60,659 nucleotides of DNA. It comes from Craspedostauros australis (taxonomy: Eukaryota). The stretch lies in NCBI GenBank assembly GCA_030167865.1, contig JALAGF010006498.1, forward strand, positions 1 through 60,659. The letters run 5' to 3'. Shown in pieces: positions 841 to 47,248 of this stretch. The notes below the pieces were generated by a model that worked only from the letters and a program-made list of their open reading frames with translations, had not been told where the DNA came from and searched no databases. The position numbers were made by a program, and so were the translations under genes. Within the stretch, counting starts at the first letter, position 1; every line of letters starts with the position of its first letter.

Positions 841-1487
841 ACAACCAAGGAAACCGCTATTTCTCAAATTTTGGAAACTAGTAAAAATGAGCAACACTAT
901 CGTTTTCTCGATCAGTTCTGTCAAAAGAGAGAAAATGTCATGTCGAAAACTTTCAATCACGTTCAAGATGGATCTTCTGGACAAAATGTTGGGTGTCCCT
1001 GACATACGACCTGCAGATCGCAAAAAAAAATCATCTCGATAACACTTGTTTGTATTGTTTTGGTGTCTTTTGGACGCTGGTTTGCTCCGTATTGGTTGCT
1101 GTTGGGAGCAAAGGCGATTCCGTACATAGAGTAGTTATTTCGTGTTTTCTCTCTCCGATCCGTCTTCTACGTCACACAGAATATTTCATAGAGTGCGTCG
1201 TGAAACACCAATCACAACACAACGTGGAACATCATCAGTTGTGTGTTGTTGTGATGGGATGGTTGTGTGCCTGCTAATTTCGTACTCTACGTACACCCAT
1301 GACGAGGTACATACGGTGATCCATCGTTACATGGGATGGTATGGCGTTACATTTGCGACAGGTAGCTGGCCCTCTTGTGGCCCGTGCGTGCTCACTCTCC
1401 TTTGTTGCTAGACCATACGAGTACGAGTACGAGCAATCGGCACATATTCATGCCTATTATGTCTGTTTTCCTTGCATCGGCCGCCGT

Positions 1488-3788
1488 TTAGGCAAGGGTG
1501 CCTTGTGTGGCGATGTTGGGAATCACAGTGTACTCCTGATTCTTGTTGCTTGCACGATGCCATATCACGCCGACCAATCCAACGAACAGCACCCCAAATC
1601 CAACGAGCAGGTGGGTGGATGATTCCAGATCGGGTGCCTCGAATCCAACATCGGCCAGCGTCGTTGGAGGATCCCAATCGACCGGGTTGGTACCAATCTT
1701 CGCCAAGCAGTACGCTCCCGTCCATCCCTCGTTGCATGCGCACGTTTTCTTCTTCGTGCACGTTCCACGATCCTTGCCGCCACAGTTCTGACGCACGGCG
1801 GGGTGCTTGCCGTCAGGCTTAAATCCCACGACGCACTCACCGCCACCGTTCTGAACCTCCTTCAACGGTTGCTCGTCATTCTCTGTCATGTAGTTCTCCT
1901 GATGGGCTTCGATGTAGCGGCGCGTGGGGCGCTCGGGGGTCGAGCAGCCCACCTTCTGCTCTGGCTTGCTGGGGTCCTGGTAGATGCGAATCCAGTCCAC
2001 CTTGTACTTTGGCTTTGCCTTGAGCATCTTGCAGAAACCGCGGGAGAAGCCGCAGGTGTGCTGCCACTCCTTGGAATTGCAGTCGTACTTCTTGCAGTCG
2101 CAGTTGGTTGGGCAGTCCTTGGGGAATCCCCATTGGGAGGAGATGGCGGTGTTGATCAGCAGGTAGCTTGGTTCGGCGGAAATCTCAGCGCCTGTGATGA
2201 AAAATGTGGGAAGCACGGTGTCGGAATTGGGCGAAGATGTGAGTTGTTTCTTCTGATGCAATCATCTCAGGATTTTACCCATGTCTGTCCATTGGAGCGA
2301 GCACGTCTGCCATTTTTGCATGCAGGAAACGAATGAGACACCCAACCACCCATTCTCCACGCAGAAGACAGAATCAAGTCCAGACAATTTCAAAATGCAC
2401 ATAATCAAGGCAGAGTGACGGCTCTGTGACTCACCCATTCCAGATTCCCTGATTCCGGTTCCGTTGATGGAAAGCACGAGTTCCCCATCGAGGAACCAGT
2501 GAAGGTAACCGTCCTTCTCGTCGGTGGGGACGTCCCATTCGAGACGGTAGACGTGGCTGGAGTTGAAGTGCGTCTCCGCGAGCTGACGGTTGTAACTGAT
2601 GGCATCGCTCCAGTAATCCTTCTTGAGGCTCTGGTCCTTGCTGAAGTGATTGTAGTTGCCGTAGAACTGGATATTGAGGGCCGACTGGTAACCACCCTTG
2701 AGGCCGTCGTACCATTGGTTGGGGCCCGGCCACCAGCCGTTGCCTGGGCGGTTGCTGGACATGCCTGGCGCAGCCTGGAAGGAGGCGCTCATGAAAGGCT
2801 GGCCGACGGGGCTCTCGAGGAAGGGTCCCTGGTTGGCCTTGATGTCACCTGGCTGCACCTCGTAGATGTCGATCTCGGGCGAGCCTCGTCCCTGGAAGGA
2901 GTGCAGACCGAAGTGCTCGGCCTCGGCGCATCCCGAAATGAGCTGCGATTCGAAGCTCTGCTGCGTGCAGCGGCTGGAGCTCCATGGCCAGACGTGTTCG
3001 GAGCTGCCGACGTAGGTGTGACGCGCGAGGTTGCCGAGAAGCCAGAAGGCCGGCCAGAGACCGCCGGCGGTGGGGCTCCCGGGCATGGTGGCCTTGATCT
3101 CAACGATGCCGCCCGTGAAGCAGAACTTGTTCCAGGTTTGAATCATGGCCGATCGGAAGTGCTTCGTGTCGTGCACCTTCTCCTGCTTGACGTCGTCGAA
3201 GCCGACGATCTCCGTGTCCTCAGCTTCGGTGGTGATGACGAGCTCTCCGTTGTCGTTGGTCTCCGCGTTGCGGTTGCTGTAGTAGTGCAGAGCGTCGTTG
3301 GTGTAATCGTTCTTCTCGAGCGCAGTCCAACGCGGATCGGCTCCATCCTCGAACGTGCGGCCTGGGGTGTTGAATTCGTCGGAGAAGATGAGCTCGTAGG
3401 ATCCTGGCGTGGCCGTGGGGTACTCCGTTGGTTGGGAGGAAGGCTCCGAGGACGGCACGTTAGAGTTGCTGGGTGCGGCCGACGGCGTCGAAGACGGGGA
3501 TACCGAAGGTAGGTTCGTTGACTTTGGCTTTTGAGGGGCCGATGGAGCGCTGGTCTCCGCGCTGGCCTTCTTGTCATGCCAATCCAGCACTCGATCTGGG
3601 TATGGCTGCGTGAGGCGCTGGTCCATGGGGGTGTCCGGATCGATCCAGTCCCCTCTCACGCCACTCAACGAGCAGCTGAGGGTCAGGGCCAGCATCAGTG
3701 CCATCTTCATGCTGGTCATCGTTGCTCTCGCTCTCGCTGTTGTTGCTCTGGTTGTTGGCTGCACGCCGGCTGTGCCTGTCACCTTCAT
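1488..3788 (-). CDS. GH16 KRE6/SKN1-family beta-1,6-transglycosylase (diatom TGS-like), 2 exons
   Basis: Signal peptide followed by DWIDPDTP; motifs LIFSDEF, FCFTGG, GLWPAFW and catalytic EIDIYE. Intron 2434-2192 (GTGAGT...CAG) gives ...ESGMGAEISAEPSYLLINTAIS. C-terminus has an EGF-like Cys module, a TM helix and YTVI. True start may be the downstream Met (MTSMKM). Confidence 0.9.
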
Positions 3789-4517
3789 TTTTGTTTCTTT
3801 CGCAAATACGATCGCAATTTATTGTCACAACTCCAACTGCAACTGTAACTGTAGAAGCCGAGGCAAGAGGATGCTCGCAGATGCCGATAACGAGGAGTGC
3901 TGGGGATCGCTTCCGGTGGTCGTGATGATTATGGATTGCCGAATCTGTCACGGTGAATTTGGAGAATGAGATGGTGTGGCTTCCGAGTTACTCTCTGCAC
4001 AAGCGGCAACGCATGAAGGATGTGCGCTCTCGATTGTGCTGTTTCCTTTTTGAGGATCGTCTTCGTCATCGATCACGTGTTGTTGTGGTTGTCATCGTTG
4101 TCATCGTCGATGTCGTATCTTCACGCGCAAACATGCAGATACGTACGCCATACACACCATCGACGTCACAGAAACGAATGGAGACACGAACGCGAACAAC
4201 CAAAGTTGACATACGTGTATCGACTGGGTCAAACAGGGAATGGTTTTGATCAATTGGGTCGTCGAGTCGATTCGTTTCAGGGTTGCTTCGCCTGTCCGTC
4301 AGTACGGCCAGATCCTCGAAAACCGACGCAAACGCCAACCAACATCACCAAACAACGTCACACGGACACATCGACACATCAACAAACACCTTCCTTCTTC
4401 ATTGTTGCATCGAATCATCCATGAACAAGCTCATGCTCAGGATCCATCCCTCGTCCCAGCCGCCGCCAATGAACAAACCTCTCCATTGGAACACGCGGTT
4501 CACGATTGCAATCAACG

Positions 4518-5819
4518 ATGAAAAGGGAATACCAGCAAGAGTGTTTGACGAGATCAGGCAAGGCTAGGTCGCTCTTGTCATGCTGCTATCTTCTGTTGGT
4601 TTGCGAGGCCACATCGACCTTCGCTGCTTCTGCATCTGTTCCTTCAAACACTCTCACTCGCACTGGTACGAATGCCAGCAGCAGACAGCTGCCGTTCTGC
4701 TTGGCAGCCAACCGCCAAGGACGTCGAAGGCCTCGCTCGTCGTCATCGAACACACCCGAGTCGTCAACAGCAGCAGCAGAACCACAGCTTGCTGCCAAAG
4801 GATTCCAATCCAAGCCGGCTGTCGAGACCAAGCCAGCCGGTGATGGGTCTGTGAGAGCTACAGCTGCAACTGCCGTCACTTCCACTTCCACGACGGCGTC
4901 CACAAGTGAGCGCATCTACTCTCTGCCAGCGCTCTATGATCTCGCTTTCGGATATCGCAATTTCGAGGATGAGGTTCGGTTCTTGGTTGCTCAACATCAG
5001 CTGCTGCAGAATCCACAACAGCAGCAGGGGGAAGGCGATGTCAGCGACGATGCCAACGATGGTGCTGATCAGTCGCCGGCTCCGATCAACGTCTTGGAGT
5101 TGGCATCGGGGCCATCCCGGCATTGCATCCACGCCATTCAATCCAACCTCATACGATCGGCGACGGCCCTGGACGCCTCCACGGATATGATACAGTACGC
5201 CAAGAAAATCGCGAAGGAAGAACTCTCCGATCTTGATGACAACGACATCGATCAGCGGTTGACCTTCGTGCAGGATGACATGAGATCATTCACGCTCAGC
5301 AGCAACAACAAAATCAATGATATCGATTCTGCATGGATCCTGCTGGGGTCCATGCAGCACCTCACCACCAACGAGGATGTCATCGCTTGCTTCCGATCAA
5401 TCCACAGCGTCCTCAAGCCCGATGCCACCCTCATCATAGAACTGCCACACCCGCGAGAAACCTTCTCCCTCGTCGAATGCACGCGCAACGGCTGGGAGGT
5501 CCCGCTCGAAGACGACGACGGCAAGCAATTCGGCGAGCTCGAGATCGTGTGGGGCGACGACAACGACGCCTTCGATCCCATTCGCCAGGTTCGCGACTTC
5601 ACAGTCTCCATGGAGCTCAAGGGCGTGCCCGAGGAGGAACAGCAGAAGGTCAAGGAGATCGTGCCCATGCGCCTCTTCACGACGCAGGAGATCGACGCCC
5701 TCGCGCGGTTGTCGGGGTTCCGCATCGCCGCCTTGCATGGTGCCGTGGCGGATGGCGTCGACATCAACGATGGAGACCAGGCCTACCGGCTCGTGTGCGT
5801 TCTGCAGAAAGAGGGGTGA
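4518..5819 (+). CDS. Class I SAM-dependent methyltransferase, probably plastid-targeted
   Basis: YDLAFGYRNF, motif I VLELASGPSRH, ALDASTDM, FVQDDMRSF, LKPDATLIIE. Hydrophobic N-terminus followed by TST-FAA resembles a bipartite presequence. Confidence 0.85.
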   Translation: MKREYQQECLTRSGKARSLLSCCYLLLVCEATSTFAASASVPSNTLTRTGTNASSRQLPFCLAANRQGRRRPRSSSSNTPESSTAAAEPQLAAKGFQSKPAVETKPAGDGSVRATAATAVTSTSTTASTSERIYSLPALYDLAFGYRNFEDEVRFLVAQHQLLQNPQQQQGEGDVSDDANDGADQSPAPINVLELASGPSRHCIHAIQSNLIRSATALDASTDMIQYAKKIAKEELSDLDDNDIDQRLTFVQDDMRSFTLSSNNKINDIDSAWILLGSMQHLTTNEDVIACFRSIHSVLKPDATLIIELPHPRETFSLVECTRNGWEVPLEDDDGKQFGELEIVWGDDNDAFDPIRQVRDFTVSMELKGVPEEEQQKVKEIVPMRLFTTQEIDALARLSGFRIAALHGAVADGVDINDGDQAYRLVCVLQKEG

Positions 5820-10002: not shown

Positions 10003-10459
10003 GTTGCTCTTGCGACAGTTCGTCTTCTGTTTAAGTTTTTATGTTTTCTGTTATTGGTAATTGCGTATGTCCTCGAGTTCCGAAACCGTTTGCGATAACC
10101 ATAGGTTTCAGTACTGATTCTTACGCGGATTCAAAACCTGCTGGGTCTTCGCGCGCCTTTTTAATTCAGCGATTCCAGAAGAGTGAAGAAGAATCAGAAG
10201 CAAGAACGAGAGCATCGCACCGGGCGAGACGCACATCCTATCGGAGCCTGAGAAGCAGTCAGGTCCAGGTAGTCGGAAAATACATCACAGAAACCGAACA
10301 GATCACAAGAACGGAGCAAAAACACATGAATGAGATGGAATAGCCATAATCCATCCTCAATCCAATCAATACATCAAGTTACACGCTTACGACTATACCT
10401 ACGTTCCAATACATCCAGCAAGCCTTCCCCAAGGAGGCCACCCAAACGGCAAACAAACG

Positions 10460-28635: not shown

Positions 28636-29470
28636 CGTGGCTGTTCGTTCAAGTGGTTGTTGTCTGCTGCTGCACTTTGCACCGTCGTTGGTATCGTGCT
28701 TTGATGTTGATGCTGGTGTTGATGCTGATGGTGGTGGTGTAGTGTGGAGCGATGTGGTCAATTGTTCGCCGTTTGTCATGGGTCATGGTGAGCATGGTTG
28801 TCATTGGGCACTGTTGTCCTGTTGTGCACGACAGCCCGTGTATCGTTTTCGGATCTTCGACGAAAGCTGGTTGAATTCATCACATGTATCACCTGTCCGT
28901 CTCCCGATTCTTCGGCGAAGTTGACTCAAATGAAGCGACTTGTGATCGATTGTGTCAATTTGATCAACACGACTTTGTGAAGTGTCATTTTTTCGGTGGT
29001 TCTTTTCGAATTTGAATTCGTTTCTGGCGCCAACACCGCCAAACGCTCGGCACAAGTGTGGCGCTACACAATGACGCATCAGCAAAGTCGTCCTCGCACG
29101 GGCATGGTACGGAATGGTATGGTGCATACCTCTGTGTGGAACCGAATCTTCTCACGGGATGGACCATCAGCAGTAGCAGTAGCAGCAGCAGCAGCATCCG
29201 TCCTTGGCATACGCAGACGAGTACAATTGGCGTCATCCATGTTGCTCACCAAGCACGCCTGGAAGGAAACAATACTGACGAACACGAGCGAGAGCAGGAA
29301 CACGAGCGCGATAAGCTGGAGTATTGCTTCAAGGGTTGGACTGAGAGCAAACTGTATGATACAACTCGGTTCCGGCTTGTGACGAGCACATCGACAGTCA
29401 AGGCAACAGCACCCAAGCCATCAAGTCAAGGTCTATTGGCAGATCGTGGAACTCGCCATCCAGCACAGGC

Positions 29471-32400
29471 ATGAATACGAGCAGCAGCAATACTGCCGAA
29501 AAGATCCAAAAGATGGCAGAGGACGATGTGCTGACGCTGCTGCAGCGGCTACAACGGCAGTATCATGCGCAGGGCGTGAGCGGCGACGCGGGCGCCAACA
29601 CCTCAAGCAGTGCCCGGGTAGGCATGGTTGCCAGTGGCAACGCCGATGGGAATGTCAGGAGTGGCGGCCATCAGGCATTCCAACAATCACCAAAGGAACT
29701 CCGCATGGACCGTCCGCCAGATGCGATTGCCACTGCCCTTGGCAGACAGCTGGCCCAGCACTACCAAGCGCTGAATGTGTGCGAGATCCCCAAGGGCTTG
29801 CAAGAAAAGACCTTGCTGGCATTGTGCAACAAGAAGGTGCCGACCAACGTCCTGTCCGGATTTCTCGCCAAGCTGCTGCAAGAATCTGGGCCGACCACAG
29901 CCTCCTCATCATCGCCGTCATCGCCGTCGTCATCGCCCAATGTAGCGCCTCTGCACGGCGAAGTCGAAAGCAACCACGATGCCTCAGGAACCTCAAAAAG
30001 TGCCTCCACTCCGACTCCGAACTACATCCAGCTGGATTGGCTGCCACAGTGGATGGTCTACTGCGAGCACGAGTATGTCAAAAGCCTCAATCAGACGCAA
30101 TCGAAGGCAACGTCGTCATCAATCGCCTCCTCATTTGAGACAGCAAGGAGGGTCAACAAATACCGCAACAGCCTTAGGTACCAATCACAAATGTCGTGCC
30201 AGCAACCATTCCTCGAGGCGCTCACGATCCTGGCTCGTGCCTACGCGCAGTACCAAAGTGACAAACTGGATTACTTATCCTCGGCGCAGGCAAGCGGACA
30301 AAAGATCCCCATGATGTTTCGCAATCACAAGAACGACAGCCAGCACTCCAGGATGAACAGCGCTGCTCAAAATCGATTGCAAACTGGTCACACCATCGCG
30401 ATGACATTCCGACAGTTCGAGACGGATGCTGGGAGATTCTCTTTTCTGCGGGAGTGCATTCAGATTGCATTCCGCCAATACGCTGCAAACGCCAATGACA
30501 TTGACGATGGTGATGAGAAGGCATCGATGCTGCTGCGATGCATGATCAGCCCGCTGCTTTCCGCGACGGTCCTGACCCCATCGACGTCTATCGCTGCTTC
30601 CACGCTCTGCTGCCAAGAGATTTGGCGACAGTCTTGGCAGCTGGTGGAACAGACGAATGATCTTGGTGTCCTCATTCAAAAGCTGTGGCACATCCTCACA
30701 TGGCAAACGAAGGGGCTGGATCTCTTCCTGCGGACCGTATCATCGTGCTACACGACGGGAACCATCGCGAACCAGCACAGCTACACCGCCTCGCCTGTCG
30801 CTGCCAAGGAATTGGCAACCCAATGGTTCCACACCCTGCTCGAGCTGGCGGTCTTTCTCCAAAACTCGATTCTCAGCGAAGCAGAGATGGAGGACAGCGT
30901 AGAAGCAAGCGCGGCCGCGGCAGGGAGAGACGGCGCGAAGAATGGCGGTCGCGTTGGAGGAACCAAGGATTTTCAATCTCAACATCGGCAGCGACAGTGG
31001 CAGCATCAGCGTCATCGTCGCGATCGTAATCATCGTGATGTTGATTACGGCGCTGATTACATGGATGGCAACAGCGACAGCGAGAAGACCAAGACCGATG
31101 GCATCAGCCGTACATTGCAACGCAGCCTCTATCTCGATAAGTGCAAGGAATGGTTGGAGCACATCTTGTGCACAACACTATTAAGCTGGTTCACGATCGT
31201 TCCATCCTACCATGTTTCCTTCCACAGTGGATACCAATCGCTCCTCGAAATTCTCGCGAAGCTGTCAAGATCGTCACAATCAACAACGTCGTCATCATCA
31301 CCATCATCGCTGGCTTCGTCGTCATCGATCAAAATGACCGACACAACCTTTTTCCGATTGGCGACCATGGCCCTTTCGTTACCTCGCAACGATGAAGCGA
31401 TGATGCTGGTCAAGATCATCTCATACCTCTCGCCCGTTCCGACGGACAAGGCCAAGACGTTCGACACCACGGCGCCTGCGTCGCAGTCCTACAGAACCAG
31501 CATCTTCCAAGCCTTGAAATGCGTCCTGCGAACCAACGGGGACAAGATTGATCCCAAGGGAAATGGAGGCCACAACTTCATCACGCTGGCCGCATCGAGC
31601 CTCCTCCAGCCGGTGATATCCACCGTCACGACCAACTCCGAACTGTCCTCCAGTCGATCCATGAAAGATCCAAACCAGAACATCCAAAGCATCATCCAAT
31701 TCCTCGATGACTCTGTCGTGAACACGGAAGAATTCCTGCACTTCGTCGCACCAGCAAGCCTCCCCGACAACACCGAGCCTTCCATGTTCGACATTAACAA
31801 TGGTATCGATGATGATGACGACATAGAGGAGTCCGCCATATTCCCGCATGCATCTATCCTATCCTCGATCCAGCAAAATGCCGCATTCGTTTTGGGCATC
31901 GCACTATCCAGTGTAGATGCTCGGGCCGCAACGAGATATTGGAGGCAGATGCTGCCTGTATACTCTCACGTTGGCATCCCGCTGCTACCTGTGTGGATGG
32001 AGTCAATCAACCAGACATGCGCAGCGCAAGATGGCGCTTTGCTGATGAAGCAGCTGGACTTCCTCTGCACCACATTGATCATCGATAAGCACTGCTCGCG
32101 AGAAGTTTGGAACCTGCTGAACAGCTACGTGCTGGATCGGAAGATGCCCATCACAGTCCGCACCACCATCATCCGATTCTTCCCAAAGCTCTGCGCAGCC
32201 AACCGCCGTCTGTACACGCGCGTCATCGACGCCATCGGCAAATGCTTGGCGCTCACGAAAGCCATCGCACAGATGGATCTGCCAGAGGAACGGCGCATCG
32301 CAGAAATCGGTCAAATCAGCATCGCCGTCATTGCGACGTTAGCGGATATGGCCAAGGAGGGCTTGATACGGGATGTGTCGGATGTGATTGGTTGGGTCCA

Positions 32401-35400
32401 GTCCTTCATCATGGCAGGTTCCACCGCCAACCGATTCACTTCCAGCAGCGACGAAACGCCGATTCACGCTGTGCTGATTCACTTCGCGTTGCGATGCTTG
32501 CATTATCTGATGCTGTCGCAGGAGCTAGAATTCTCCCTCGTCATGGTCGTTTTGAACAAACACCTATGCGATGTCCACGATCGAAATCAGATCATCCGCC
32601 TGCCTTTGCTCATCTTGGAACCGTTGGTGGAATTGCTTGGCGATGGTGGGCTAGGAGACATGGACCATGACGACGATGACGACGATGACAACGACAACGA
32701 CGAAAATGATGAAGATGGCAGAGGAGAGGGCAGCGGTGATGGATTTGGTCGTCCTCGTGGCACCTTCGATGACGATCATGAAATCCTTGCGAATAGATCG
32801 CGCGCTGTTAGGGATGGGGATACGTCGCAAGTCTCCAAATGCATCGAAACGTTAATTACATTGGCTCAGTCGCAGCGCTTGCAATTGCACAGCACAATGC
32901 CCAGAAATGATCGAACTTTGGTGAATCGAATTCGCAACGCCATCCATGAATCCTTGGCGCGGTATTCCGTGCACGCGCTTGGGTTGAACGCGGAAGGTCT
33001 GCATCGGTTGATGACAGCTCCAGCTATGACGACAACCGCCAATGGCAGCCCTAATGGCGACGGCCAGAACGGTTATGCAAGTGACGGCGCAAAGAACGCA
33101 ATGGTGAATGCAAATGCATCCGTGGCGAAGAGATACAACGACCTTCGGCAGATCATCATCAATGGCGTCAATTCTCCTAGTTCGGCGACAAGCAAGAACA
33201 AGTCGGAACCAGATGCATCGAACAGCTCGATTGCGGCACTGATCGTCAAGATGATGGCATTCGAGCAGGATTCCTTCAGTGCAAATCTGTGGCATTTGGG
33301 TGGTGATGCTGCGAATGGCAAGAGACAAGCAAATGCAGGCAAGGCAAATGGTGCATTGGATCACGAGACAGACTCAGCGTTGCCTCGGGTGGCGAAGGTG
33401 CAGCAGCTGTACAACGAAAACTCATCACCGACGTCATCCGTGGCGATGCTCCTGTGCTTTGAGGGGAAGCCAATGACCTTGCTCAATGATGTGGCGCTGG
33501 ACGTGAGGACGGAGGAGCGCGATCCGCTGGTGCAGAGTTTCACCGTGCAAGGCTGGTTGAATGCTGCTAGATCACTGCTGAAGGACGTCGCCAGCGCTGC
33601 CAGCAACAGCGCGGATGGGTACAGTCAGGCCAACCTGTTGGAATCGCTGGATAGCACGCTGCAGCATCTACGCGGATGGAGGAATCGGCATGATGCACCA
33701 GACAATGCACTGCTGGGGCTTGCCGCAGTTGGGGTTTTCGTGCGTGACATTCTGGAGGCAGACGGTGCGGATTGCTCACGGCAGGTCGGCAGTATCTGCG
33801 ATGATGTGTGGGAGGCCTACGATGACGGAGACTGCGAAGACATGGATAGTGGCAGGGTCGCAATCGCACTGACCGCCATTGCCCGCCTCCACAATAACGA
33901 CCAAGAAGGTGTGGACAGAGCGGTGAACGCGCTGATCCGCTCCATCACAGACCACGAAGGCGAGGTCACGTTCGGAGCAGCCTTCGGTCTCGCAATCATC
34001 GCTCAGGCCGCGTACCTTGAGTTTCTGAAAGACAGCAGACCCAACCACGTGAAATGCGCCAAGCACATCATCAGCTTCCTCGTGCAGCTGCTGATCAGCC
34101 TCTTCGATGAGGAGTATTCGGAATTGAACGACCTTGTGGATTGCATCAAGAAGGGGAGATCGCCAGACGTGCGGAGGCTGACCGCGCTGGGCAAGCAGCG
34201 AGTTCGGTTGGAGAAAGCGAACAAGACGAAAGCGAAGATCATGTTCATCGCGCTCGCAATCTGCCTGCCGGGCCTTGCGATCGTGAATGACGAGCTGCTG
34301 CTTGGGGTGTACTGTATGCTGGAAAGCATCGAGTGGGGAGCCGGGAAGGGCATTGCCATGCCGTCTGTACTGCGTGCATGCCGGCAGGCTGGATTGTTTG
34401 AAGCCCGTCAGATAGAGCAGATCTACTCCAGATACGCCAAGGTGTTTGAGGATGGGATGGAGGACAAGTTCGGAGGGTTGGATGACGTCCTGTATGCCGT
34501 CTCTGCGACAGCGAGCAAGACGATTCCGGATTCCATCCGTCGGTTCCTGGTTGGCAACCGCAACTTGTTCGACGAGCCAGGCAGAGCGCTGTCCATCGTT
34601 GCAGCGACGCTGTCCATTGCATCCATACCGTGTCTGGGGTGCGCATCGGAAAGCATCTTGCAAACGCCAAAGCTGTCATATTCCGCCACCATCAAGGACG
34701 TGAAGGATATCGTCGGCCTCATCGTGTCAGGCGCAGGCACGCACGGGTGGAACAAGTACACTGAGATCTGCATCATCCTGACCGGCTTCATGGCAAGTAT
34801 GGATGGGTCGATCCCGATGCTCTCCTCTGGCGACTCTGTTGGCCCAGAATCAAGTATGGAAGCCTCCGCGTCCGACATGGGCATGTCGGCGATGCCGGCG
34901 CCGAGATCAGGGACGGTGCTGGAAACTGTGATCACCGCACTCGCTGGCACACTAACTCCCGACAGCGGCTCGACACTGCCGAAGGCTCGAAAAGTGAATG
35001 TGGAGATGCTGCTGGGCACGCTGAAGACTCTGCCGCTGCCAGGGCACTTCGCAACCGTCCTGAGAGACATCATGCACAGCGGTAAGCAAAGCACTAAGGT
35101 GGTGTGCAGCCAGTTGCTGGTGTCGCAGGTTCGCGACCATCACGGCAGCGGGATCGGCGGGAAGGAATTTGTGTCACTGTCGTTGCAGATTGCCAACACG
35201 CCGATCGCATCCATGAGAGGGAACCTCGGGAACGAAGACGGGATCAAGGAGTTCATCGAATGCCTGTCGGACCTCGTGCCCAAGATTCCGCAGGGCGTGG
35301 TGGCCGAGACGGTGGACAACGTGTGGCGGTTCTGCATCAATCAGATTGGGAATCACCCGTCGTGGACGGTGTCATATCTCGCAGCGATGGAGAAGCTGAT

Positions 35401-36280
35401 GAAATCGATGAAGGACTCGAAGGTTTCCATGTCGCCGAAGGTGTGCAGCATCCTCCGCACGCACGTGCTGAGGCGGATCTTCGCCGGCATCCGCGACGCG
35501 CCTTGGACGGCAGCAAGCAGGGTGTCTTCCACGGAAGAGCAGCTGATATTGGAGTCGTACACGGACTGTCTGGAGGAGATCCCCATCGAAGTGCTGGGCA
35601 AGGCCGATTTCTTCGCCCTGACGGGCAAGGACGGTTTCGCGGGGGAAGCATTGCGCAGCCGCTGCGTGCTGGGGCTGGTGCAGAACGAGTACTTCACGAC
35701 GCCGGCCCGTGCATCCAGCGAGATCGCCGCGTCGATCACGTGGTTCTGCAAGCAGCTGGCATCGTCCGAGGACGAGATCTTCTCCTCGTCGCTTCTGCGC
35801 GTCGCGTGCGCCGTCGCCGAGGCAACGTCGGTCGAGAATGATGACAAGAGGATCGACATCCTGCTGCGGCTGCTGGAGAATTACCTGTCCATCGGCGCGG
35901 CGGCCACGACGGTGGCACTTCAGATGCTGGCGGCACTCGTGAGCAAGTGGACGGAGGGCATCGGATCCGACGGCGATCTGTCTATGGGGTGCCTGACGGT
36001 GCACGGCATGTCGGAATGGCAACGCCTGTCTCCCCCGACGCTGCAGCAATTCTTCGCGCTGGCCTTGCACGATCTGCCGTACAACTTTGCGCTGTTCTGC
36101 CAAGGCGAGGAGATTTCGGAATCGGCATTCTCGAGGCTGCTGCGGCTGTACAAGAGATGGAGGGAGATCGGCGCCGACCAGGCCACCGTCGATTGCATCC
36201 GCAACATCGTGACGTGCAGTCGGCATGGCGATATCGGCGAGGATGGATTCGTGGCCTTGGGGATCACCATGTTGGTGTGA
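29471..36280 (+). CDS. Large alpha-solenoid protein, focadhesin/RST1 (DUF3730)-like
   Basis: Uninterrupted 2269-aa ORF with HEAT/ARM-like Leu/Ala helices. Segment ISIAVIATLADMAK...DVIGWVQSFI...FALRCLHYLMLSQELEFSLVMVVL resembles the DUF3730 core. CDS is certain; family is tentative. Confidence 0.6.
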   Translation: MNTSSSNTAEKIQKMAEDDVLTLLQRLQRQYHAQGVSGDAGANTSSSARVGMVASGNADGNVRSGGHQAFQQSPKELRMDRPPDAIATALGRQLAQHYQALNVCEIPKGLQEKTLLALCNKKVPTNVLSGFLAKLLQESGPTTASSSSPSSPSSSPNVAPLHGEVESNHDASGTSKSASTPTPNYIQLDWLPQWMVYCEHEYVKSLNQTQSKATSSSIASSFETARRVNKYRNSLRYQSQMSCQQPFLEALTILARAYAQYQSDKLDYLSSAQASGQKIPMMFRNHKNDSQHSRMNSAAQNRLQTGHTIAMTFRQFETDAGRFSFLRECIQIAFRQYAANANDIDDGDEKASMLLRCMISPLLSATVLTPSTSIAASTLCCQEIWRQSWQLVEQTNDLGVLIQKLWHILTWQTKGLDLFLRTVSSCYTTGTIANQHSYTASPVAAKELATQWFHTLLELAVFLQNSILSEAEMEDSVEASAAAAGRDGAKNGGRVGGTKDFQSQHRQRQWQHQRHRRDRNHRDVDYGADYMDGNSDSEKTKTDGISRTLQRSLYLDKCKEWLEHILCTTLLSWFTIVPSYHVSFHSGYQSLLEILAKLSRSSQSTTSSSSPSSLASSSSIKMTDTTFFRLATMALSLPRNDEAMMLVKIISYLSPVPTDKAKTFDTTAPASQSYRTSIFQALKCVLRTNGDKIDPKGNGGHNFITLAASSLLQPVISTVTTNSELSSSRSMKDPNQNIQSIIQFLDDSVVNTEEFLHFVAPASLPDNTEPSMFDINNGIDDDDDIEESAIFPHASILSSIQQNAAFVLGIALSSVDARAATRYWRQMLPVYSHVGIPLLPVWMESINQTCAAQDGALLMKQLDFLCTTLIIDKHCSREVWNLLNSYVLDRKMPITVRTTIIRFFPKLCAANRRLYTRVIDAIGKCLALTKAIAQMDLPEERRIAEIGQISIAVIATLADMAKEGLIRDVSDVIGWVQSFIMAGSTANRFTSSSDETPIHAVLIHFALRCLHYLMLSQELEFSLVMVVLNKHLCDVHDRNQIIRLPLLILEPLVELLGDGGLGDMDHDDDDDDDNDNDENDEDGRGEGSGDGFGRPRGTFDDDHEILANRSRAVRDGDTSQVSKCIETLITLAQSQRLQLHSTMPRNDRTLVNRIRNAIHESLARYSVHALGLNAEGLHRLMTAPAMTTTANGSPNGDGQNGYASDGAKNAMVNANASVAKRYNDLRQIIINGVNSPSSATSKNKSEPDASNSSIAALIVKMMAFEQDSFSANLWHLGGDAANGKRQANAGKANGALDHETDSALPRVAKVQQLYNENSSPTSSVAMLLCFEGKPMTLLNDVALDVRTEERDPLVQSFTVQGWLNAARSLLKDVASAASNSADGYSQANLLESLDSTLQHLRGWRNRHDAPDNALLGLAAVGVFVRDILEADGADCSRQVGSICDDVWEAYDDGDCEDMDSGRVAIALTAIARLHNNDQEGVDRAVNALIRSITDHEGEVTFGAAFGLAIIAQAAYLEFLKDSRPNHVKCAKHIISFLVQLLISLFDEEYSELNDLVDCIKKGRSPDVRRLTALGKQRVRLEKANKTKAKIMFIALAICLPGLAIVNDELLLGVYCMLESIEWGAGKGIAMPSVLRACRQAGLFEARQIEQIYSRYAKVFEDGMEDKFGGLDDVLYAVSATASKTIPDSIRRFLVGNRNLFDEPGRALSIVAATLSIASIPCLGCASESILQTPKLSYSATIKDVKDIVGLIVSGAGTHGWNKYTEICIILTGFMASMDGSIPMLSSGDSVGPESSMEASASDMGMSAMPAPRSGTVLETVITALAGTLTPDSGSTLPKARKVNVEMLLGTLKTLPLPGHFATVLRDIMHSGKQSTKVVCSQLLVSQVRDHHGSGIGGKEFVSLSLQIANTPIASMRGNLGNEDGIKEFIECLSDLVPKIPQGVVAETVDNVWRFCINQIGNHPSWTVSYLAAMEKLMKSMKDSKVSMSPKVCSILRTHVLRRIFAGIRDAPWTAASRVSSTEEQLILESYTDCLEEIPIEVLGKADFFALTGKDGFAGEALRSRCVLGLVQNEYFTTPARASSEIAASITWFCKQLASSEDEIFSSSLLRVACAVAEATSVENDDKRIDILLRLLENYLSIGAAATTVALQMLAALVSKWTEGIGSDGDLSMGCLTVHGMSEWQRLSPPTLQQFFALALHDLPYNFALFCQGEEISESAFSRLLRLYKRWREIGADQATVDCIRNIVTCSRHGDIGEDGFVALGITMLV

Positions 36281-41327: not shown

Positions 41328-42636
41328 TAGTATAATATGTTACAATACAATACTATTCTATATTGTAAGAATAGAGGATAGTATTATCTCGCACTCATGC
41401 AAGAGTGGTGAATGGTGGAATGATGTTTGCAACTTGGCGCGAGACCATACCAAGAACAAGAACAGGATGAAGAGCAAGAGCAAGAGCAAGAGCACGGATG
41501 TAGATACAGATGCGGATGCAGGGATCCGTTGGAAACAAGACATTGATGTTCGCGCGCAACCCTGCACCCACCATGACCAACGACAACAACAACCACCAAG
41601 AACGACACGCCAAGAAAGACATTTGCTTTTTGTGACTTCGGAAGGTGAAGTTCGAGTTGGTCGATTGGAAGAGCGAACCGAATGATCACAGTAGTCGTAC
41701 TCAATTCATAAGTTGATACACGACTCGATTGATTCTTGGGAGGAGACGAAACACGATCACGCCGGTCGATCTTTGTTGGTGGTGAGATCATTGAATTGTA
41801 TACAAATGCGAATAAGTTCAATTAATACGCGTGTGAGTTGACGAGGCCGAACGTGCTCGCCACACAGCGCATTTCTCTGTCCAATGATCGACCAAAGTGA
41901 CTGGCGTCGACAAAAAACATTTCGGAACGAAGAAATGACAACATTCGAAAAACGGGAAAGTGGCAGCAACAAGGCGCAGAACAATGGAGTGTGAGTAGTA
42001 GTAGAACAGCGCGGCGCAGGGCAGCGCAAGAGTACCAGAGAGGAGCGTGGCTCAGGAAACGGAGACACATCAAAATCGCCAGTATCCCCAACATCTCCAT
42101 CCTTCCTGTCCTCATCAACATCATCACCACCATCAACATCATCAACAACATTCTGAGAAGCAGCAAGGAGGAGTGACGACAGATACAATCAACAAGCCTT
42201 GTCGTTCTCACACCCGAGTTCGAAAGAAAAGGAAGGTCCGCATCCACGTTCGCATTATCGGTAGCAGTTTCGCGCCAACTCTGCGACATAGCAACACTGC
42301 GACATATAGCAGCAAGATATAGAATAGTAGCAAGATAGGAGGAATAGTAGTACTTGGAGAGCACTGAATCAAGTATCAAGTGTGGAAGGACAATTGTCAC
42401 ACTCCACACACAGACACAGAGAGAGAGAGAGCATCCAGGGAAAGGCTCAGAAGTGCTCTGTCATCATTCCGTATCATCAACTTTGTGTTCAGGATTTCAG
42501 TTGAGTTCAGTTGAGTTGAGTTGGACAGGCAGCACAAAGCGGTTGCGATTGATCACGATAGAGCACGATAGAGCACATCGCATTGCTTGCAACCAGATCA
42601 GCACAGAAGCACAAACAGAAGCAGAAGCAGGAGATT

Positions 42637-44613
42637 ATGGCAACAATGGCAACCACTCCGACTGGAGGCTCCGAAATGAGATCGGCCACTTCGTACCGTT
42701 CGACGCAGTCATCGAGGTCTTCCGTGATGGAGCGTGCAAGGGAGTACTCTCGCAAGATGGACCCTGCGCCAGGCGCTGCACAAGGAGCTGCACAAGGAGC
42801 TGCCTCAGGTACGCCATCCAATCAACAGCAGCAGCAGCAACAACAACAACAGATGGCATCGCCTTCCGCCTCCTCCGCCTATCGTTCCCAATCTGCTGGC
42901 CGGTCTCGCAATGGCAACAGCAGTGGCAACAGCAACGGCAACAACGCCGCAGACGGCCAGCATGGAAGCTCGTCTCACATGGCACATCAAACGCGACCGC
43001 AGGCAGCCACCCCACGCACCAACACGCCCACAGCAGGAGGCAACAACCACGACGGGGCAATGGCAGCAGCAACGCCCAGATCCGCACAGTCGCCATCTCG
43101 CAGATCCAGGCAGAACGACCAGGAGCAGCAGGAACCGGTCGTCTCGACGGAGCTCCTGGTGGACGCGCTCTCGGGACACGAGGATGGACTGCTGGCGATC
43201 GCTGAGAAGCTCATGGAGCACTACGACTCGGGATACGACGTCATGGGGGAGGCCATCATCGATGCCTTCTCGGACGTGCAGAAGCTATTCCAGCATGTCG
43301 TGGAAGCAGCGCATGTAGAGGGTGCGGCCTTCGAGGCCTCCAAAAGCCAGGAGGAGATCAGCGCCCTCAAGCAGCAGCTGGCGGCCGTAGGGGCGGGCGG
43401 CGAGGATGACTACGGCGGCATCGTGCCCTTCGTCAGCACGCCGAACTCTGCGGGATCCAACCCCGCCAACATGCGGATCGACGAGTTCGTCGATCAGGAC
43501 GTCAAGGACTGTCTCACCAAGGCCATCCGCGAGGGCACCACCCTCAGGGGCCAGAACCAGCACGACGAGTGCTTCGCGCTATTTTCCCATGCCTGCCAGT
43601 CCGCTTCCTCCCTCCTCCCCGTGGACAGCGACCACCGCGCGCGCCTCCAGCTCAGCTTGGAGAGGTCCAAGACCATGCCGCCGGACCGTGCCTGCGCCAT
43701 CCTCAGGTACGCCATGGACGACGTCCTGCGATCGGGAATGCGGGCGGGCAAGGTACCCCTCCCGGATCCATCCAAGCGCGCCGACGTCGTCCTCTCCAAA
43801 CCCAAGGGACATCCCTCCATGAACGGTTCCACCGGTCAGGCAGGCGTCGTCCAGTCCAGCGAGGAGGCCCTCAACTCCTTGGTCGAGGAGATGAAGGAGG
43901 TCATCAGCGCCCCCATCTACGACAACACGCCCGTCCGCAACATCTCGCAACGATTCTGGTCCGCCCTCAGCGACGCGCAGAAGTTGCAGCTGCGCAATGA
44001 GGAACGCCTCGAGCACAATCTCGGAAAGTACAAGGTCGAGTATCTATTGGCCAGAGCGGTAAGTCAAGCGACATGGCCTCAATATTTATTTGTTTCAACA
44101 TTCATCATCTTCATGCCACGCACAGTCTCACACTAAATCCATCATCTTCAACTCTTCTTCATTCATACTACTTCATACTCACAGGAATGGGAGGAAAAGC
44201 TCAACAGCACGCAGGAGATGGCAGAAACGTACAAGCAGAAATACCTCACCTTGAAGGGCAATGACAATGCCATCGCCGAGGATGCCTTCGGAAGGCCCAT
44301 GCTTACTGGCGTGGGCCAATCCAACCAGACCAAATCCACGGATTCCTCCATCCACTACGACTTCGCCTCGGCGAGAGGCAAACCCCACAAAGCCTCCAGA
44401 GGTGTCGAGTCTGTGGCCTCGATAGGCAGCTCCATGGCACAGCACGCCAGAAGCTTGGTCGGATCCTTCGCCTGCTCCGGCATCAACGAACGCACGGGTG
44501 GGGTCCTCGCCACGGAACTCGCGGAACACCAAGCCCAGGCGCAGTGGAGAGAAAAGAGAAAGAATGCCAAGGGTGCGGTCAAGACGCAGCAGCAGCAGTA
44601 TCAGGATTTGTAA
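42637..44613 (+). CDS. Hypothetical protein with coiled-coil regions, 2 exons
   Basis: Long GC3-rich ORF. Intron 44059-44184 (GTAAGT...CAG) joins YLLARA|EWEEKLNSTQEMAETYK in frame. Confidence 0.8.
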
Positions 44614-44829
44614 AAGTTGCGCCAGCGATAGTAGCAGCACGGATTGACAACATTGAGCACAGAGTGGAGTGGCGGAATATCGTACATTCGTTGAGCTTCG
44701 TGCGAGCCTTTCTCACGTGCATTGTCGGTAAGGGCATTGCATATATAACGCAAGGCATATACGGATACATGAATATGTTCCCAATTGTGTATTCATTTAC
44801 ATGTTACTGTGCTCTCGATACTCGAGGCT

Positions 44830-47248
44830 TCACAACGCTCGCGCTTGCAGAGCTCCCCTTCCCTTTGTTCTTGTTGCTGTCCTCTTTCCTGAGCGCGGTG
44901 TCGTCATTGGTGCAATCGGCAAGTTCATACGGTGAGAACCATTCGACAGCGGTGGTGCTGTTTGTTTTGACATTCCACCCTTCAGCAGATCGGAATAGAT
45001 CGTGCACAGATGCTCCACCTTGTACGAAGTGGAATACGGATTGGACTTGGACGACGATGAGGGCCCATTCCTGGATGGTGTCTTCTTCCATTGCTCACAC
45101 AAGCGATCCGCAGTTTGGATCCAGGCCTCGTTCGTGTACTGCGAGAACACCTCCAAGCCAGAGGACTGATCAATCGTTGACCAATATTCCAGGTACTCCG
45201 TGATGCAGGAATGTGCATTGGCCGCACCACCACCTCCGCAGCTGTTGTTGGGGACGATGAAACAAGCGAACTTGGTGATGATATCGTCTTCGATGATTGC
45301 AATCACCTTGTACAGATGGGTCGGAATCCAAATGTCCGTTCCCGATTGGCGTGGAATGGTGGATGTTGGCGTCCTTGCTGGTGTGCCGGAGCCTGCGGTT
45401 GATGTGTTGTACAACGTCCCCGTCATGACAAAGGTGGAGTTTCCATACAGCTCGTACTCCGTCTTGGCCACGTTGCGCGTGAAATCCTCGATGCGCTTCC
45501 AGATTGTGCGGTTCATGATGGGATCTTGCGGCACGATGTTGCAGAGGTGGAACGTGTCGTTCTTGGATTGGGCGGAGACGTGGTTGCCGGCGGCCGCCAG
45601 GTGGCCTCTGTGGAACGCCGTGTTCCTGTAGTCAGACGATCTCACGGAGTGCGGAATATCGTTGAAGTACGTCGTGGGGCGTTTGACGTTCTCCTGACCG
45701 GGCTTCTTCTGACATCCATCCAGCTGCTCGATGGAGTAGATCGCCGTGTTGGTGCGCTTGTCGAACACGACGTACAGGCTGGGGTTGGGACTGTACTCAT
45801 GGATTGGCAGCTTGGCGAGGACGGAGGAGAGGTTGATCCTTCGGTTTTGTGGCTGATCATTTCTCACGAAGGTTGGATTCGTCGGGGGCGGCGGCGGTGG
45901 CATGGGAACTGGCAGGAAGCAGCTGATTTCTTCGTCGTTGTCAATGTTTGCGTTCTTGTTGTCAGAGTGCTTCTCGTGATGATGGTGATCGTCATCGTGC
46001 TCGTGAGTCTCATGACCCCCACGATGATTGTACGTTTGGGCCTTCCAGGAGACCTTCGCTTGCTCGCCTCTCTTGCGTTGCTTGTGCTGCATTGGTTGAT
46101 TATGCTGCTTCTGCGCTCCGTTCTGGCGCTCCTCGTTACGGTGGTGCCCATTGTGAATGCCACCACCATTGCCACCACCATTGCCACCCCCGTTTTTGTC
46201 GTCGCGACCGTCTTCATAGATATTCGCTCGACTGCGTTGAAACCAACTGTTCATCTTGCGAGCGTACGCATTGTTTCGGAACCTTGTGAAACGTTGCGGA
46301 TTCTCCTTCTGCCGCGGTCCTTCGCTGCCATTCATTGTGGTCAGCAGATGCTGCGCCTGCATGTGCGCCTGCATAATGTTCATGGACTGCGGCAGCATGT
46401 GGGTGGATTTCGCGTGGCGGTTGGTGGGAATGACGAAGCTGGTTTTGAGACAGGCATTGATATCATGATTGGTTGGCGGTATCATCTTGAGCTTCTCCAC
46501 AACCTCGACCGAGACCAACCCTTGGTTGTTGTCGATGCAAGTGCGGCGGATGAACTTGCGTCCAAACTTCAATCGGAACTGCTCCTGCAAGGCGTACATT
46601 TCGGGGATGTCCTCTGGCAGTCGTGAGATGGAGAATAGCAGCGTGGCAATGGCCGTGCGCGTCGACATGGGAACGCATGACTTGTTGAGCGACTTGAGGA
46701 GATGGATCTGACCAGCCAGCACGTCGCAAATGTCCATGAGAAGTTCTAGGACCAGGACCATCTGCTGATGACGCACAATGCTTTCGGCCCGGAGGCGGAT
46801 GCGGCGTATGGATGGATCAGTGGCGGAAGGGTCCGTGATGTCATGCCATGACGATGGCGTCTTCTTGATCAAGGTCGCCAACTCCTTTCTCGTCTTTTGG
46901 ATCTCCACGTCCCGCCTGTTTCGCAGCGTGTTGAATCTGCATTTTGCCAGTTCAACATCTGTTCGTGTGTGCAGTGTGCGCAGTCACAGGGAGAGGAAGA
47001 TCACAGCATGCGAGTGCTGAAGACATGTGAGTGCCGGAGGAAGAGAGTGCCACAGCACCATCCGCATCGTGAACGCCGAGATGGAACGCATGTAGTTGCG
47101 GTCTGTTCCAACCATTCATCCGCTCGCATATTGATGTCCTCGTATTGGGCACGTGCGAAGAAGAGACCCGAAGAACGCACAAGAGGATGTTTTTACACTT
47201 ACTTTGCTTCAGCTTGCGACCGCTGAAGCGTCGCGGGAGGCACAGCAT
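44830..47248 (-). CDS. IST1 (ESCRT-III regulator) domain fused to a DNA/RNA non-specific endonuclease (EndoG/NUC1) domain, 2 exons, 724 aa
   Basis: Exon 1 47248-47203, intron 47202-46959 (GTAAGT...CAG), exon 2 46958-44830. IST1: FSGRKLKQNVELAKCRF...RIRLRAESIVR...LELLMDICDVL...AIATLLFSISRL...KFGRKF...VVEKLKMIPP. Nuclease: DYRNTAFHRGHLAAAGNH, DTFHLCNIVPQ...NRTIWKRIE, VMTGTLY, IPTHLYKVI, CFIVPN, IDQSSGLEVF. Confidence 0.88.

Follow-up and report, generated by a model that had tools for sequence, protein, structure and literature searches.

The window analyzed here is the whole 60,659-nt (60.7-kb) contig JALAGF010006498.1 of Craspedostauros australis, and the gene of interest occupies positions 47248 to 44830 on its minus strand. 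This locus is one real two-exon protein-coding gene of a diatom-type genome. It joins an IST1-type ESCRT-III core, through a long linker, to an EndoG-type nuclease, and we are confident that the product is a genuine, conserved IST1-EndoG fusion protein. Residue numbers follow P0001, the 708-residue exon 2 part read unspliced from its first full codon. The features of the gene and its product are:

47203..47248, minus strand: exon 1, ATG-started, 15 codons plus 1 base (MLCLPRRFSGRKLKQ), start of IST1 helix alpha-1
46959..47202, minus strand: GT..AG intron, 244 nt, phase 1, with GT at 47202-47201 and AG at 46960-46959
44830..46958, minus strand: exon 2, a single open frame including the TGA stop at 44832-44830
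46432..46958, minus strand: IST1-type ESCRT-III core, P0001 residues 1-175, matching Pfam Ist1 and closed in the structural model
46450..46452, minus strand: Cys169, equivalent of human IST1 Tyr165, placed by extending the human IST1 alignment by counting
45844..46431, minus strand: low-complexity linker rich in N, H, Q and G, P0001 residues 176-371, predicted by AlphaFold to be disordered, with a predicted local distance difference test score (pLDDT) of about 30
45883..45912, minus strand: PVPMPPPPPP segment
45001..45843, minus strand: EndoG-type beta-beta-alpha-metal nuclease, residues 372-652, recognized by Pfam, PDB and the model
45601..45612, minus strand: HRGH, the DRGH catalytic motif with Asp changed to His, in which His452 is the general-base histidine
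45526..45540, minus strand: NIVPQ with the metal-ligand Asn473, its N and Q invariant in 65/65 aligned relatives
45004..45018, minus strand: VEHLC, by homologue comparison a lineage-specific C-terminal motif of diatom-type EndoG-like proteins
44833..45000, minus strand: 56-residue C-terminal extension without counterpart in homologues, pLDDT below 50, coding status uncertain

From stop to stop, the minus-strand frame runs from 46983 to 44830 (717 codons). The preliminary description of this locus had invoked a canonical intron that restores the IST1 N-terminus, and this splice holds up: the GT..AG intron at 47202..46959 brings exon 1 (MLCLPRRFSGRKLKQ plus one base) into phase with exon 2, completing IST1 helix alpha-1 and giving a model of 724 residues. 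The coordinates in that description were correct to within a few bases. GC content at codon positions 1, 2 and 3 (GC1/2/3) is flat in the intron (0.52/0.53/0.54). It is 0.52/0.38/0.72 in the IST1 part and 0.44/0.47/0.75 in the nuclease part, and five other genes in the window have the same shape. No second IST1-like or nuclease-like frame was found within the 60.7-kb window.

The identity of the N-terminal half is supported by sequence and structure comparisons. Pfam Ist1 (PF03398) matched residues 8-180 of the open reading frame (ORF) with an E-value of 1.9e-22 and 80.4 bits, against a curated cutoff of 33.6. Human IST1 was matched in PDB at E 4e-8 with the whole protein and 4e-9 with the domain alone. 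Residues 1-175 were modeled with pLDDT 82-94 (AF2). VIA-align, a Foldseek-independent comparison with 48161 chains, ranked the N-terminal domain of human IST1 first (3frr_A, Z 17.8, root-mean-square deviation (rmsd) 1.7 over 160), that of yeast Ist1 second (3ggy_A, Z 17.4), and IST1 in its CHMP1B copolymer on ssDNA third (6e8g_S, Z 16.3). In the model, the core adopts the closed IST1 N-terminal fold. The protein also carries the alpha-4/alpha-5 signature ..G.KF....N..G.V...V..KL...

Beyond this core, the usual IST1 tail is missing. In 96/120 canonical diatom IST1s, the final 20 residues include a MIM1-like helix. The corresponding pattern (L.{0,2}R{1,2}[FL]..L[KR], our own rendering of the motif) was found nowhere in 29/29 fused proteins, the window's included, in agreement with the missing MIM1-like tail first described. 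The reported absence of a mitochondrial presequence also fits, as the N-terminus appears from its sequence to be IST1 helix alpha-1 itself, which would leave no room for a separate presequence.

The C-terminal half is an EndoG-type nuclease. Pfam Endonuclease_NS (PF01223) matched ORF residues 403-614 (E 1.6e-29; 103.6 bits against a curated cutoff of 23). Taken with the Ist1 score, this bears out the original reading of one polypeptide in which the IST1 N-terminal domain and the EndoG-type nuclease are both complete. Among PDB chains, the C-terminal half matched endonuclease G at E 1.5e-16 and also EXOG. Folded alone with a 66-row alignment, the nuclease reached pLDDT 83.6 and a predicted template modeling score (pTM) of 0.85. 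Foldseek matched it to EndoG/CPS-6 at E 1e-13 (TMt 0.64-0.72), and VIA-align to 3ism_B with Z 13.0. The low confidence at the active site of the full-length model is attributable to its 13-row alignment, because 66 rows folded the domain well. His452 aligns with the position changed from His to Ala in crystallised EndoG mutants. R450, G451, H452, N473, Q477, N482 and E490 were invariant in the 66-row alignment (22/22 fused proteins, 43/43 unfused proteins and the window protein). With all invariant catalytic residues kept, the nuclease is predicted to be catalytically intact and Mg-dependent.

Both edges of the nuclease have counterparts in relatives. Just before it stands a conserved element, ..LSPxLPIxIFRPNPxLEIAFD.., whose window version is LPIHEYSPNP at 45781-45810; this element is the start of the nuclease fold itself. 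At the other end, stand-alone diatom-type EndoG-like proteins (P0007-P0255) almost all finish in ..[LV]xHLCxxGxC[RQK].., and the ..HLCxxGxC.. stretch is possibly a small Cys/His element. Most fused proteins keep LEHLxx and then stop, having lost the second Cys, while the window protein keeps VEHLC and continues for 56 more residues. We considered the LEHL motif as a MIM-like element and rejected it. Instead, LEHL/VEHLC is a shortened form of the ..HLCxxGxC.. of stand-alone diatom EndoG-like proteins, a further link between the nuclease half and the EndoG family of the lineage itself.

Between the two domains, a linker of about 200 residues rich in H, Q and N had been read in one frame. It measures 196 residues, among which are 23 N, 18 H, 17 Q and 17 G. 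We argue that it is coding, because its frame stayed open in only 6/20000 mononucleotide shuffles, the other two same-strand frames across it contain 5 and 8 stops, and its GC1/2/3 of 0.60/0.39/0.65 is of coding type in contrast to the flat intron. The PVPMPPPPPP segment had been likened to the IST1 Met-Pro region. As a remnant of the IST1 tail it was rejected, since it is not conserved; in an alignment of 13 fusion proteins, only the window protein has this insertion. A different linker motif, ..[DE]W[EK]xLPTAFG.., is conserved in a Cylindrotheca-type subclade (P0003, P0006, P0162, P0169) and absent from the window protein; it may be a subclade-specific docking site. On the plus strand, an open frame of 407 codons (45403-46626) covers, in antisense, the linker and a portion of the nuclease. 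This frame is most likely a by-product of stop-poor, low-complexity DNA and not a gene.

The same architecture is found in other organisms. HMMER, run exhaustively against 1.84 billion cluster representatives, yielded 3325 matches at E<=0.001. None exceeded 35% identity, so the window protein itself is absent from the searched library. Ist1 and Endonuclease_NS occurred together in 12 of the 40 best-matching proteins scanned (from 150 listed matches), with Ist1 above the Pfam cutoff in 9. A profile built from seven fusion proteins, window excluded (A2), matched 1049 proteins at E<=1e-10. By precomputed Pfam, both families were present in at least 26 clusters (90% identity) among the 120 matches listed, so that the search for the same fusion elsewhere, proposed with the preliminary description, was positive. 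With our own domain hidden Markov models (from A1, window included), both domains were detected in 36/255 proteins. One ORF with both domains (551 aa, source label type:complete) is an MMETSP transcript, which provides evidence for a single mRNA spanning both domains in that organism. Recurrence of the architecture in other organisms argues that the fusion is real.

Members of the family already have database entries. The Cylindrotheca closterium protein is deposited as CAJ1961793.1 ("unnamed protein product") and as UniProt A0AAD2G3S9 ("Endonuclease"), a further member occurs in C. fusiformis (EukProt), and a degenerate form is found in Nitzschia sp. Nitz4. JGI automatic names for other members are "endonuclease G" and "endonuclease G, mitochondrial". 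The preliminary description knew of no described protein with this architecture. As far as publications go this stands, since a full-text literature search, with most subscription journals outside its reach and supplements excluded, found no paper on it. It does not stand for databases, where the fusion is already public under generic endonuclease names. The sole "diatom" mention in PMC13468122 is a Diatome knife, and EndoG appears in PMC12462507 in the references only. ESM Atlas gave no usable match for the window protein. A word-indexed search with the whole protein gave no match, probably as low-complexity words filled the candidates. Within this unremarked family of diatom genes, the window copy is highly divergent.

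Genomic DNA for two relatives came from a scan of metagenome contigs, in which 80 loci were listed and 360/509 candidate stretches confirmed; the two loci reaching the IST1 part were examined. Each holds both domains in one frame: 3974..5494 (506 codons) in L001 and 1037..2548 (503 codons) in L003. Their linkers are about 60-70 residues long and non-repetitive. The first exon of L001 (3863..3911, MTIVGSSRRLEKELRQ) ends ...Q plus one base and is followed by a 78-nt GT..AG intron (3912..3989) in phase 1. That of L003 (913..970, MRPLPALGSHRRWEHEIEQ) likewise ends ...Q plus one base, before an 85-nt GT..AG intron (971..1055), again in phase 1. A phase-1 intron in helix alpha-1, common to all three genes, supports the splice proposed for the window as well as common descent. 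Database models of several fusion proteins apparently lack the first exon (P0014/P0157), and P0014 starts with the M before EVERK. The L001 DNA (3863-3990) reveals a 16-codon exon and the 78-nt intron. The N-termini of these database models are therefore mis-annotated.

These data bear on whether two neighboring genes, one IST1-like and one EndoG-like, were read as one through a chance-open spacer or a misassembly. Such an artifact could be suspected from a gene model read from DNA and from stop-poor, low-complexity DNA whose opposite strand is open for 407 codons across the linker. However, two unrelated metagenome contigs carry the same domains in the same order and in one frame, joined by short non-repetitive linkers, and the complete transcript ORF and the clusters described above also hold both domains. 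In the window itself, the rarity of open shuffles and the coding GC3 pattern of the linker argue against a spacer. The IST1 part moreover lacks both a MIM tail and a stop, and the nuclease has neither its own start exon nor a presequence. We consider the two-gene explanation very improbable.

To place the fusion relative to its parent families, nuclease and IST1 trees were built. A FastTree nuclease tree comprised 244/254 rows, leaving out envelopes shorter than 180 residues and two multi-repeat proteins. In it, 33/36 fused rows formed one starred clade, whose four "unfused" members are short fragments; P0004/P0156 and the window protein fell outside on long branches. An IQ-TREE subset contained 29 fused and 47 hand-picked unfused proteins, with six near-identical cluster members and two fragments left out. 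Here, the fused label needed two changes. Constraining all 29 fused rows together, the window's among them, gave a log-likelihood 8.69 above the free short-search tree (p-AU 0.742). A single origin is therefore not rejected, and the constrained tree is the better of those found. In a tree of the IST1 domain (29 fused proteins and 43/120 canonical diatom IST1s), fused and canonical sequences were separated by one change, with support of only 51. This tree paired the window protein with P0004 (support 89, both on long branches). HRGH is likewise common to these two proteins, as is ..AC.. at the Tyr165 position.

Diatoms have many canonical IST1s, about 300-470 residues long; named sources are Leptocylindrus, Minutocellus, Proboscia, Conticribra, Nitzschia inconspicua and Nitzschia sp. 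Nitz4. In Nitzschia sp. Nitz4, a canonical IST1 (P0282) occurs alongside a fusion-family protein (P0015), and in C. fusiformis a fused protein (P0169) accompanies a stand-alone EndoG-like one (P0008). The fusion is an extra paralogue beside canonical IST1 or stand-alone EndoG-like genes in related species. We read the family as lineage-restricted, with a probable single origin from an IST1 duplicate joined to a duplicate of the lineage's EndoG-like nuclease.

Work on human and yeast IST1 frames what such a protein might do. McCullough et al. 2015, Bajorek et al. 2009 and Xiao et al. 2009 reportedly agree on IST1 as the outer strand, on recruitment through its tail, and on filaments around membranes and nucleic acids. 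According to PMC13468122, closed IST1 forms the outer strand of CHMP1-IST1 double filaments, its tail recruits MIT-domain enzymes, and the filaments form around membranes and nucleic acids. The same study describes human CHMP1B-IST1 copolymers that assemble around dsDNA, ssDNA and ssRNA, coat ultrafine DNA bridges and shield them from nucleases (PMC13468122).

In the window protein, about 190 N-terminal residues retain the IST1 core, closed in the model. Canonical IST1 brings in VPS4, spastin and other MIT proteins through its MIM tail, and a linker predicted to be disordered and a complete nuclease of sugar-non-specific type have taken the place of this tail. We infer localisation, ESCRT-III binding, substrate and biological role as follows. 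As the N-terminus is an IST1 helix, mitochondrial import of the kind known for EndoG is not expected, and the protein should reside in the cytosol or nucleus. There, the IST1 core most likely tethers the nuclease to ESCRT-III assemblies or gates its activity at these sites. Candidate sites are polymers that contain CHMP1: those of membrane tubules or necks, those of the nuclear envelope as it re-forms or of the division site, and those surrounding nucleic acids. At such ESCRT-III sites the enzyme would cut DNA or RNA; its targets might be bridges in dividing cells or viral genomes, and its settings the sealing of the nuclear envelope or endosomal or autophagic turnover.

Judged from its domains, the protein most likely acts in the cytosol or nucleus, as a nuclease that ESCRT-III assemblies tether or regulate. 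An ESCRT-III-associated nuclease function is a tentative proposal, which we place slightly below an even balance. The best explanation of the data as a whole is a real diatom fusion gene whose IST1 core places or gates an extramitochondrial nuclease at ESCRT-III; for this complete account, we regard the case for and the case against as evenly poised.

Several observations weigh against this account. The gene model is a reading of DNA, and our check for the organism's own canonical IST1 and EndoG covered the window. The protein is the most divergent member of its family (at most 35% identity to any relative), its end branches measure 1.3-2.4 in trees of the nuclease and 1.7 in that of IST1, and the free trees put it outside the main fused clade. 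Most homologues have linkers of about 60-130 residues that are not low-complexity; that of the window protein is unusually long and low-complexity, and may contain an in-frame intron. The first residue of the DRGH motif (449) is D in 21/22 fused and 43/43 unfused proteins and His in the window, with His found otherwise only in P0004. Finally, the last 56 codons have a GC1/2/3 of 0.50/0.61/0.46, which is no coding pattern, and homologues end 2-4 residues past the LEHL motif. As these codons also lack a counterpart in homologues, the true C-terminus is uncertain; the tail may be a stop-loss extension or reflect an unrecognised 3' splice.

Taken at face value, the features of this copy could describe a decaying or functionless gene. 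Such a relic would evolve fast and keep an open frame for now, while its repeat linker had expanded and its tail arisen by read-through. Its branch is the longest among the fused proteins, and the HRGH motif, the Cys at the Tyr165 position, the 196-residue linker and the tail of noncoding composition would all fit a relic. They must be set against an intact frame of 2.1 kb, a linker that few shuffles leave open, and GC3 enrichment throughout the three main parts. None of the invariant catalytic residues has been lost, moreover, and both domains fold confidently in the models. On balance, decay of this copy is improbable.

A more serious concern is whether the IST1 part still engages ESCRT-III. 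Tyr165 of human IST1, on helix alpha-5, is buried by CHMP1B helix 6, and Tyr165Ala abolishes CHMP1B MIM1 binding (PMC13468122). An equivalent Tyr occupies this position in 120/120 canonical IST1s of diatoms but in only 15/29 fused proteins. Loss of this residue in the other 14/29, among them the window protein, means that ESCRT-III binding may be altered or lost. For the window copy, Cys at this position weakens the case for a strictly canonical IST1-CHMP1 contact. Fused IST1 domains also evolve much faster, with end branches of 0.5-3.07 compared with a canonical median of 0.14, a sign that constraint on them has relaxed or changed.

The same data would suit an IST1-like module that has left ESCRT-III and was co-opted as a helical dimerisation, auto-inhibitory or scaffolding domain of a cytosolic or nuclear EndoG-type nuclease. 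Loss of the presequence would then merely relocate the enzyme, which could serve stress- or death-associated DNA/RNA degradation or virus defence. In addition to the faster evolution and the loss of the Tyr165 equivalent (14/29 fused, 0/120 canonical), the MIM tail is found in 0/29 fused proteins, and the canonical IST1 retained in Nitzschia sp. Nitz4 implies that the ESCRT role is already covered. Yet the modeled core retains the closed IST1 fold (rmsd 1.7 A over 160 residues), Ist1 scores above its Pfam cutoff in 9 divergent representatives, and most substitutions at the Tyr165 position in fused proteins bring in hydrophobic residues (L, I, V, M, C). An isolated IST1 core is not known to have any other partner or function. 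We view co-option away from ESCRT-III as rather unlikely, though less so than decay of the copy.

Polymer geometry bears on how a nuclease placed at ESCRT-III by its IST1 core might act. In the human polymers, IST1 is outermost and nucleic acid contacts CHMP1B inside (PMC13468122). By analogy, a nuclease borne by IST1 would face away from the encased DNA, which also counts against the ESCRT-III account. In a bolder version, diatom polymers of CHMP1-IST1 type would display the nuclease on some outer-strand subunits, and assembly at the closing nuclear envelope, the division plane or stray nucleic acids would directly trigger cutting of the trapped DNA or RNA. This version is speculative, and we rate it as unlikely.

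ESCRT-III subunits act as the structural units of polymers, and short C-terminal motifs let them recruit enzymes such as VPS4, spastin and calpain-7. Among these subunits, we are aware of no other that is fused to an enzyme. If the bolder version is true, this would be the first ESCRT-III subunit to bear its own enzyme, and its action would be the converse of the protective human CHMP1B-IST1 DNA coat recently described. The recruiting tail has been swapped for an enzyme, in an arrangement kept across diverse diatom sequences. Through the fusion, cytokinesis, nuclear-envelope sealing, the turnover of nucleic acids or antiviral defence in diatoms could be approached by experiment. It also has a practical consequence for annotation, in that the automatic label "endonuclease G, mitochondrial" mislabels the fusion proteins. 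Since human CHMP1B-IST1 polymers assemble around DNA and RNA and coat DNA bridges (PMC13468122), a natural IST1-nuclease chimera is a ready-made probe for contact between ESCRT-III and nucleic acids.

Other parts of the window were also annotated. A contig of one run (kind guessed as RNA, share 0.08) matched only 44500-44773, outside the fusion gene. This interval lies just downstream of the fusion stop, over the 3' end of a convergent plus-strand gene (frames 42562..44136 and 44137..44613), and the 3' ends of the two genes may abut or overlap. A Cwc15 gene neighbors the fusion gene. On the minus strand, the SKN1/KRE6 beta-glucan synthesis protein is matched by two abutting frames, 2262..3818 (profile 103-406) and 1488..2261 (profile 433-481); the in-frame stop between them probably lies in a short intron, and frame 1488..2261 also carries an EGF-like module. 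Two long plus-strand open frames, 29360-36280 (2306 codons) and 10334-13333 (999 codons), had no Pfam match at E<=0.001. The minus-strand frame 20126-22177 (683 codons) contains two Helicase-associated (HA) domains, a family expanded in diatoms. These domains, along with the relatives found, fit a diatom-type genome.

Comparison with known systems separates what is shared from what is distinctive. The window core resembles human IST1 and yeast Ist1 in its Pfam match, the fold of its N-terminal domain and the alpha-4/alpha-5 signature. It differs from them in lacking the MIM tail, in having Cys for Tyr165 and an enzyme as its C-terminal half, in evolving faster, and in being a paralogue. With EndoG, Nuc1, CPS-6 and EXOG (PF01223, Serratia-type), the window protein shares the complete domain, the fold, the RGH histidine and the metal-ligand Asn, and its nuclease nests within a clade of diatom EndoG-like proteins sharing the C-terminal HLC motif. 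Unlike these enzymes, it has an IST1 core in place of the N-terminal targeting region, and HRGH rather than DRGH.

LEM-3/ANKLE1 and TREX1 are midbody or bridge nucleases of the GIY-YIG and DEDDh families; neither these families nor their targeting domains are related to those of the fusion. The concept they might share with the window protein is only that of a nuclease targeted to DNA bridges or to where the cell divides. The diatom fusion proteins (e.g. A0AAD2G3S9) have the same domain order and MIM-tail loss as the window protein and, where DNA was read, the same first exon and phase-1 intron. Relative to them, the window protein is at most 35% identical, has a linker that is 2-3 times longer and low-complexity, and bears the 56-residue extra tail.

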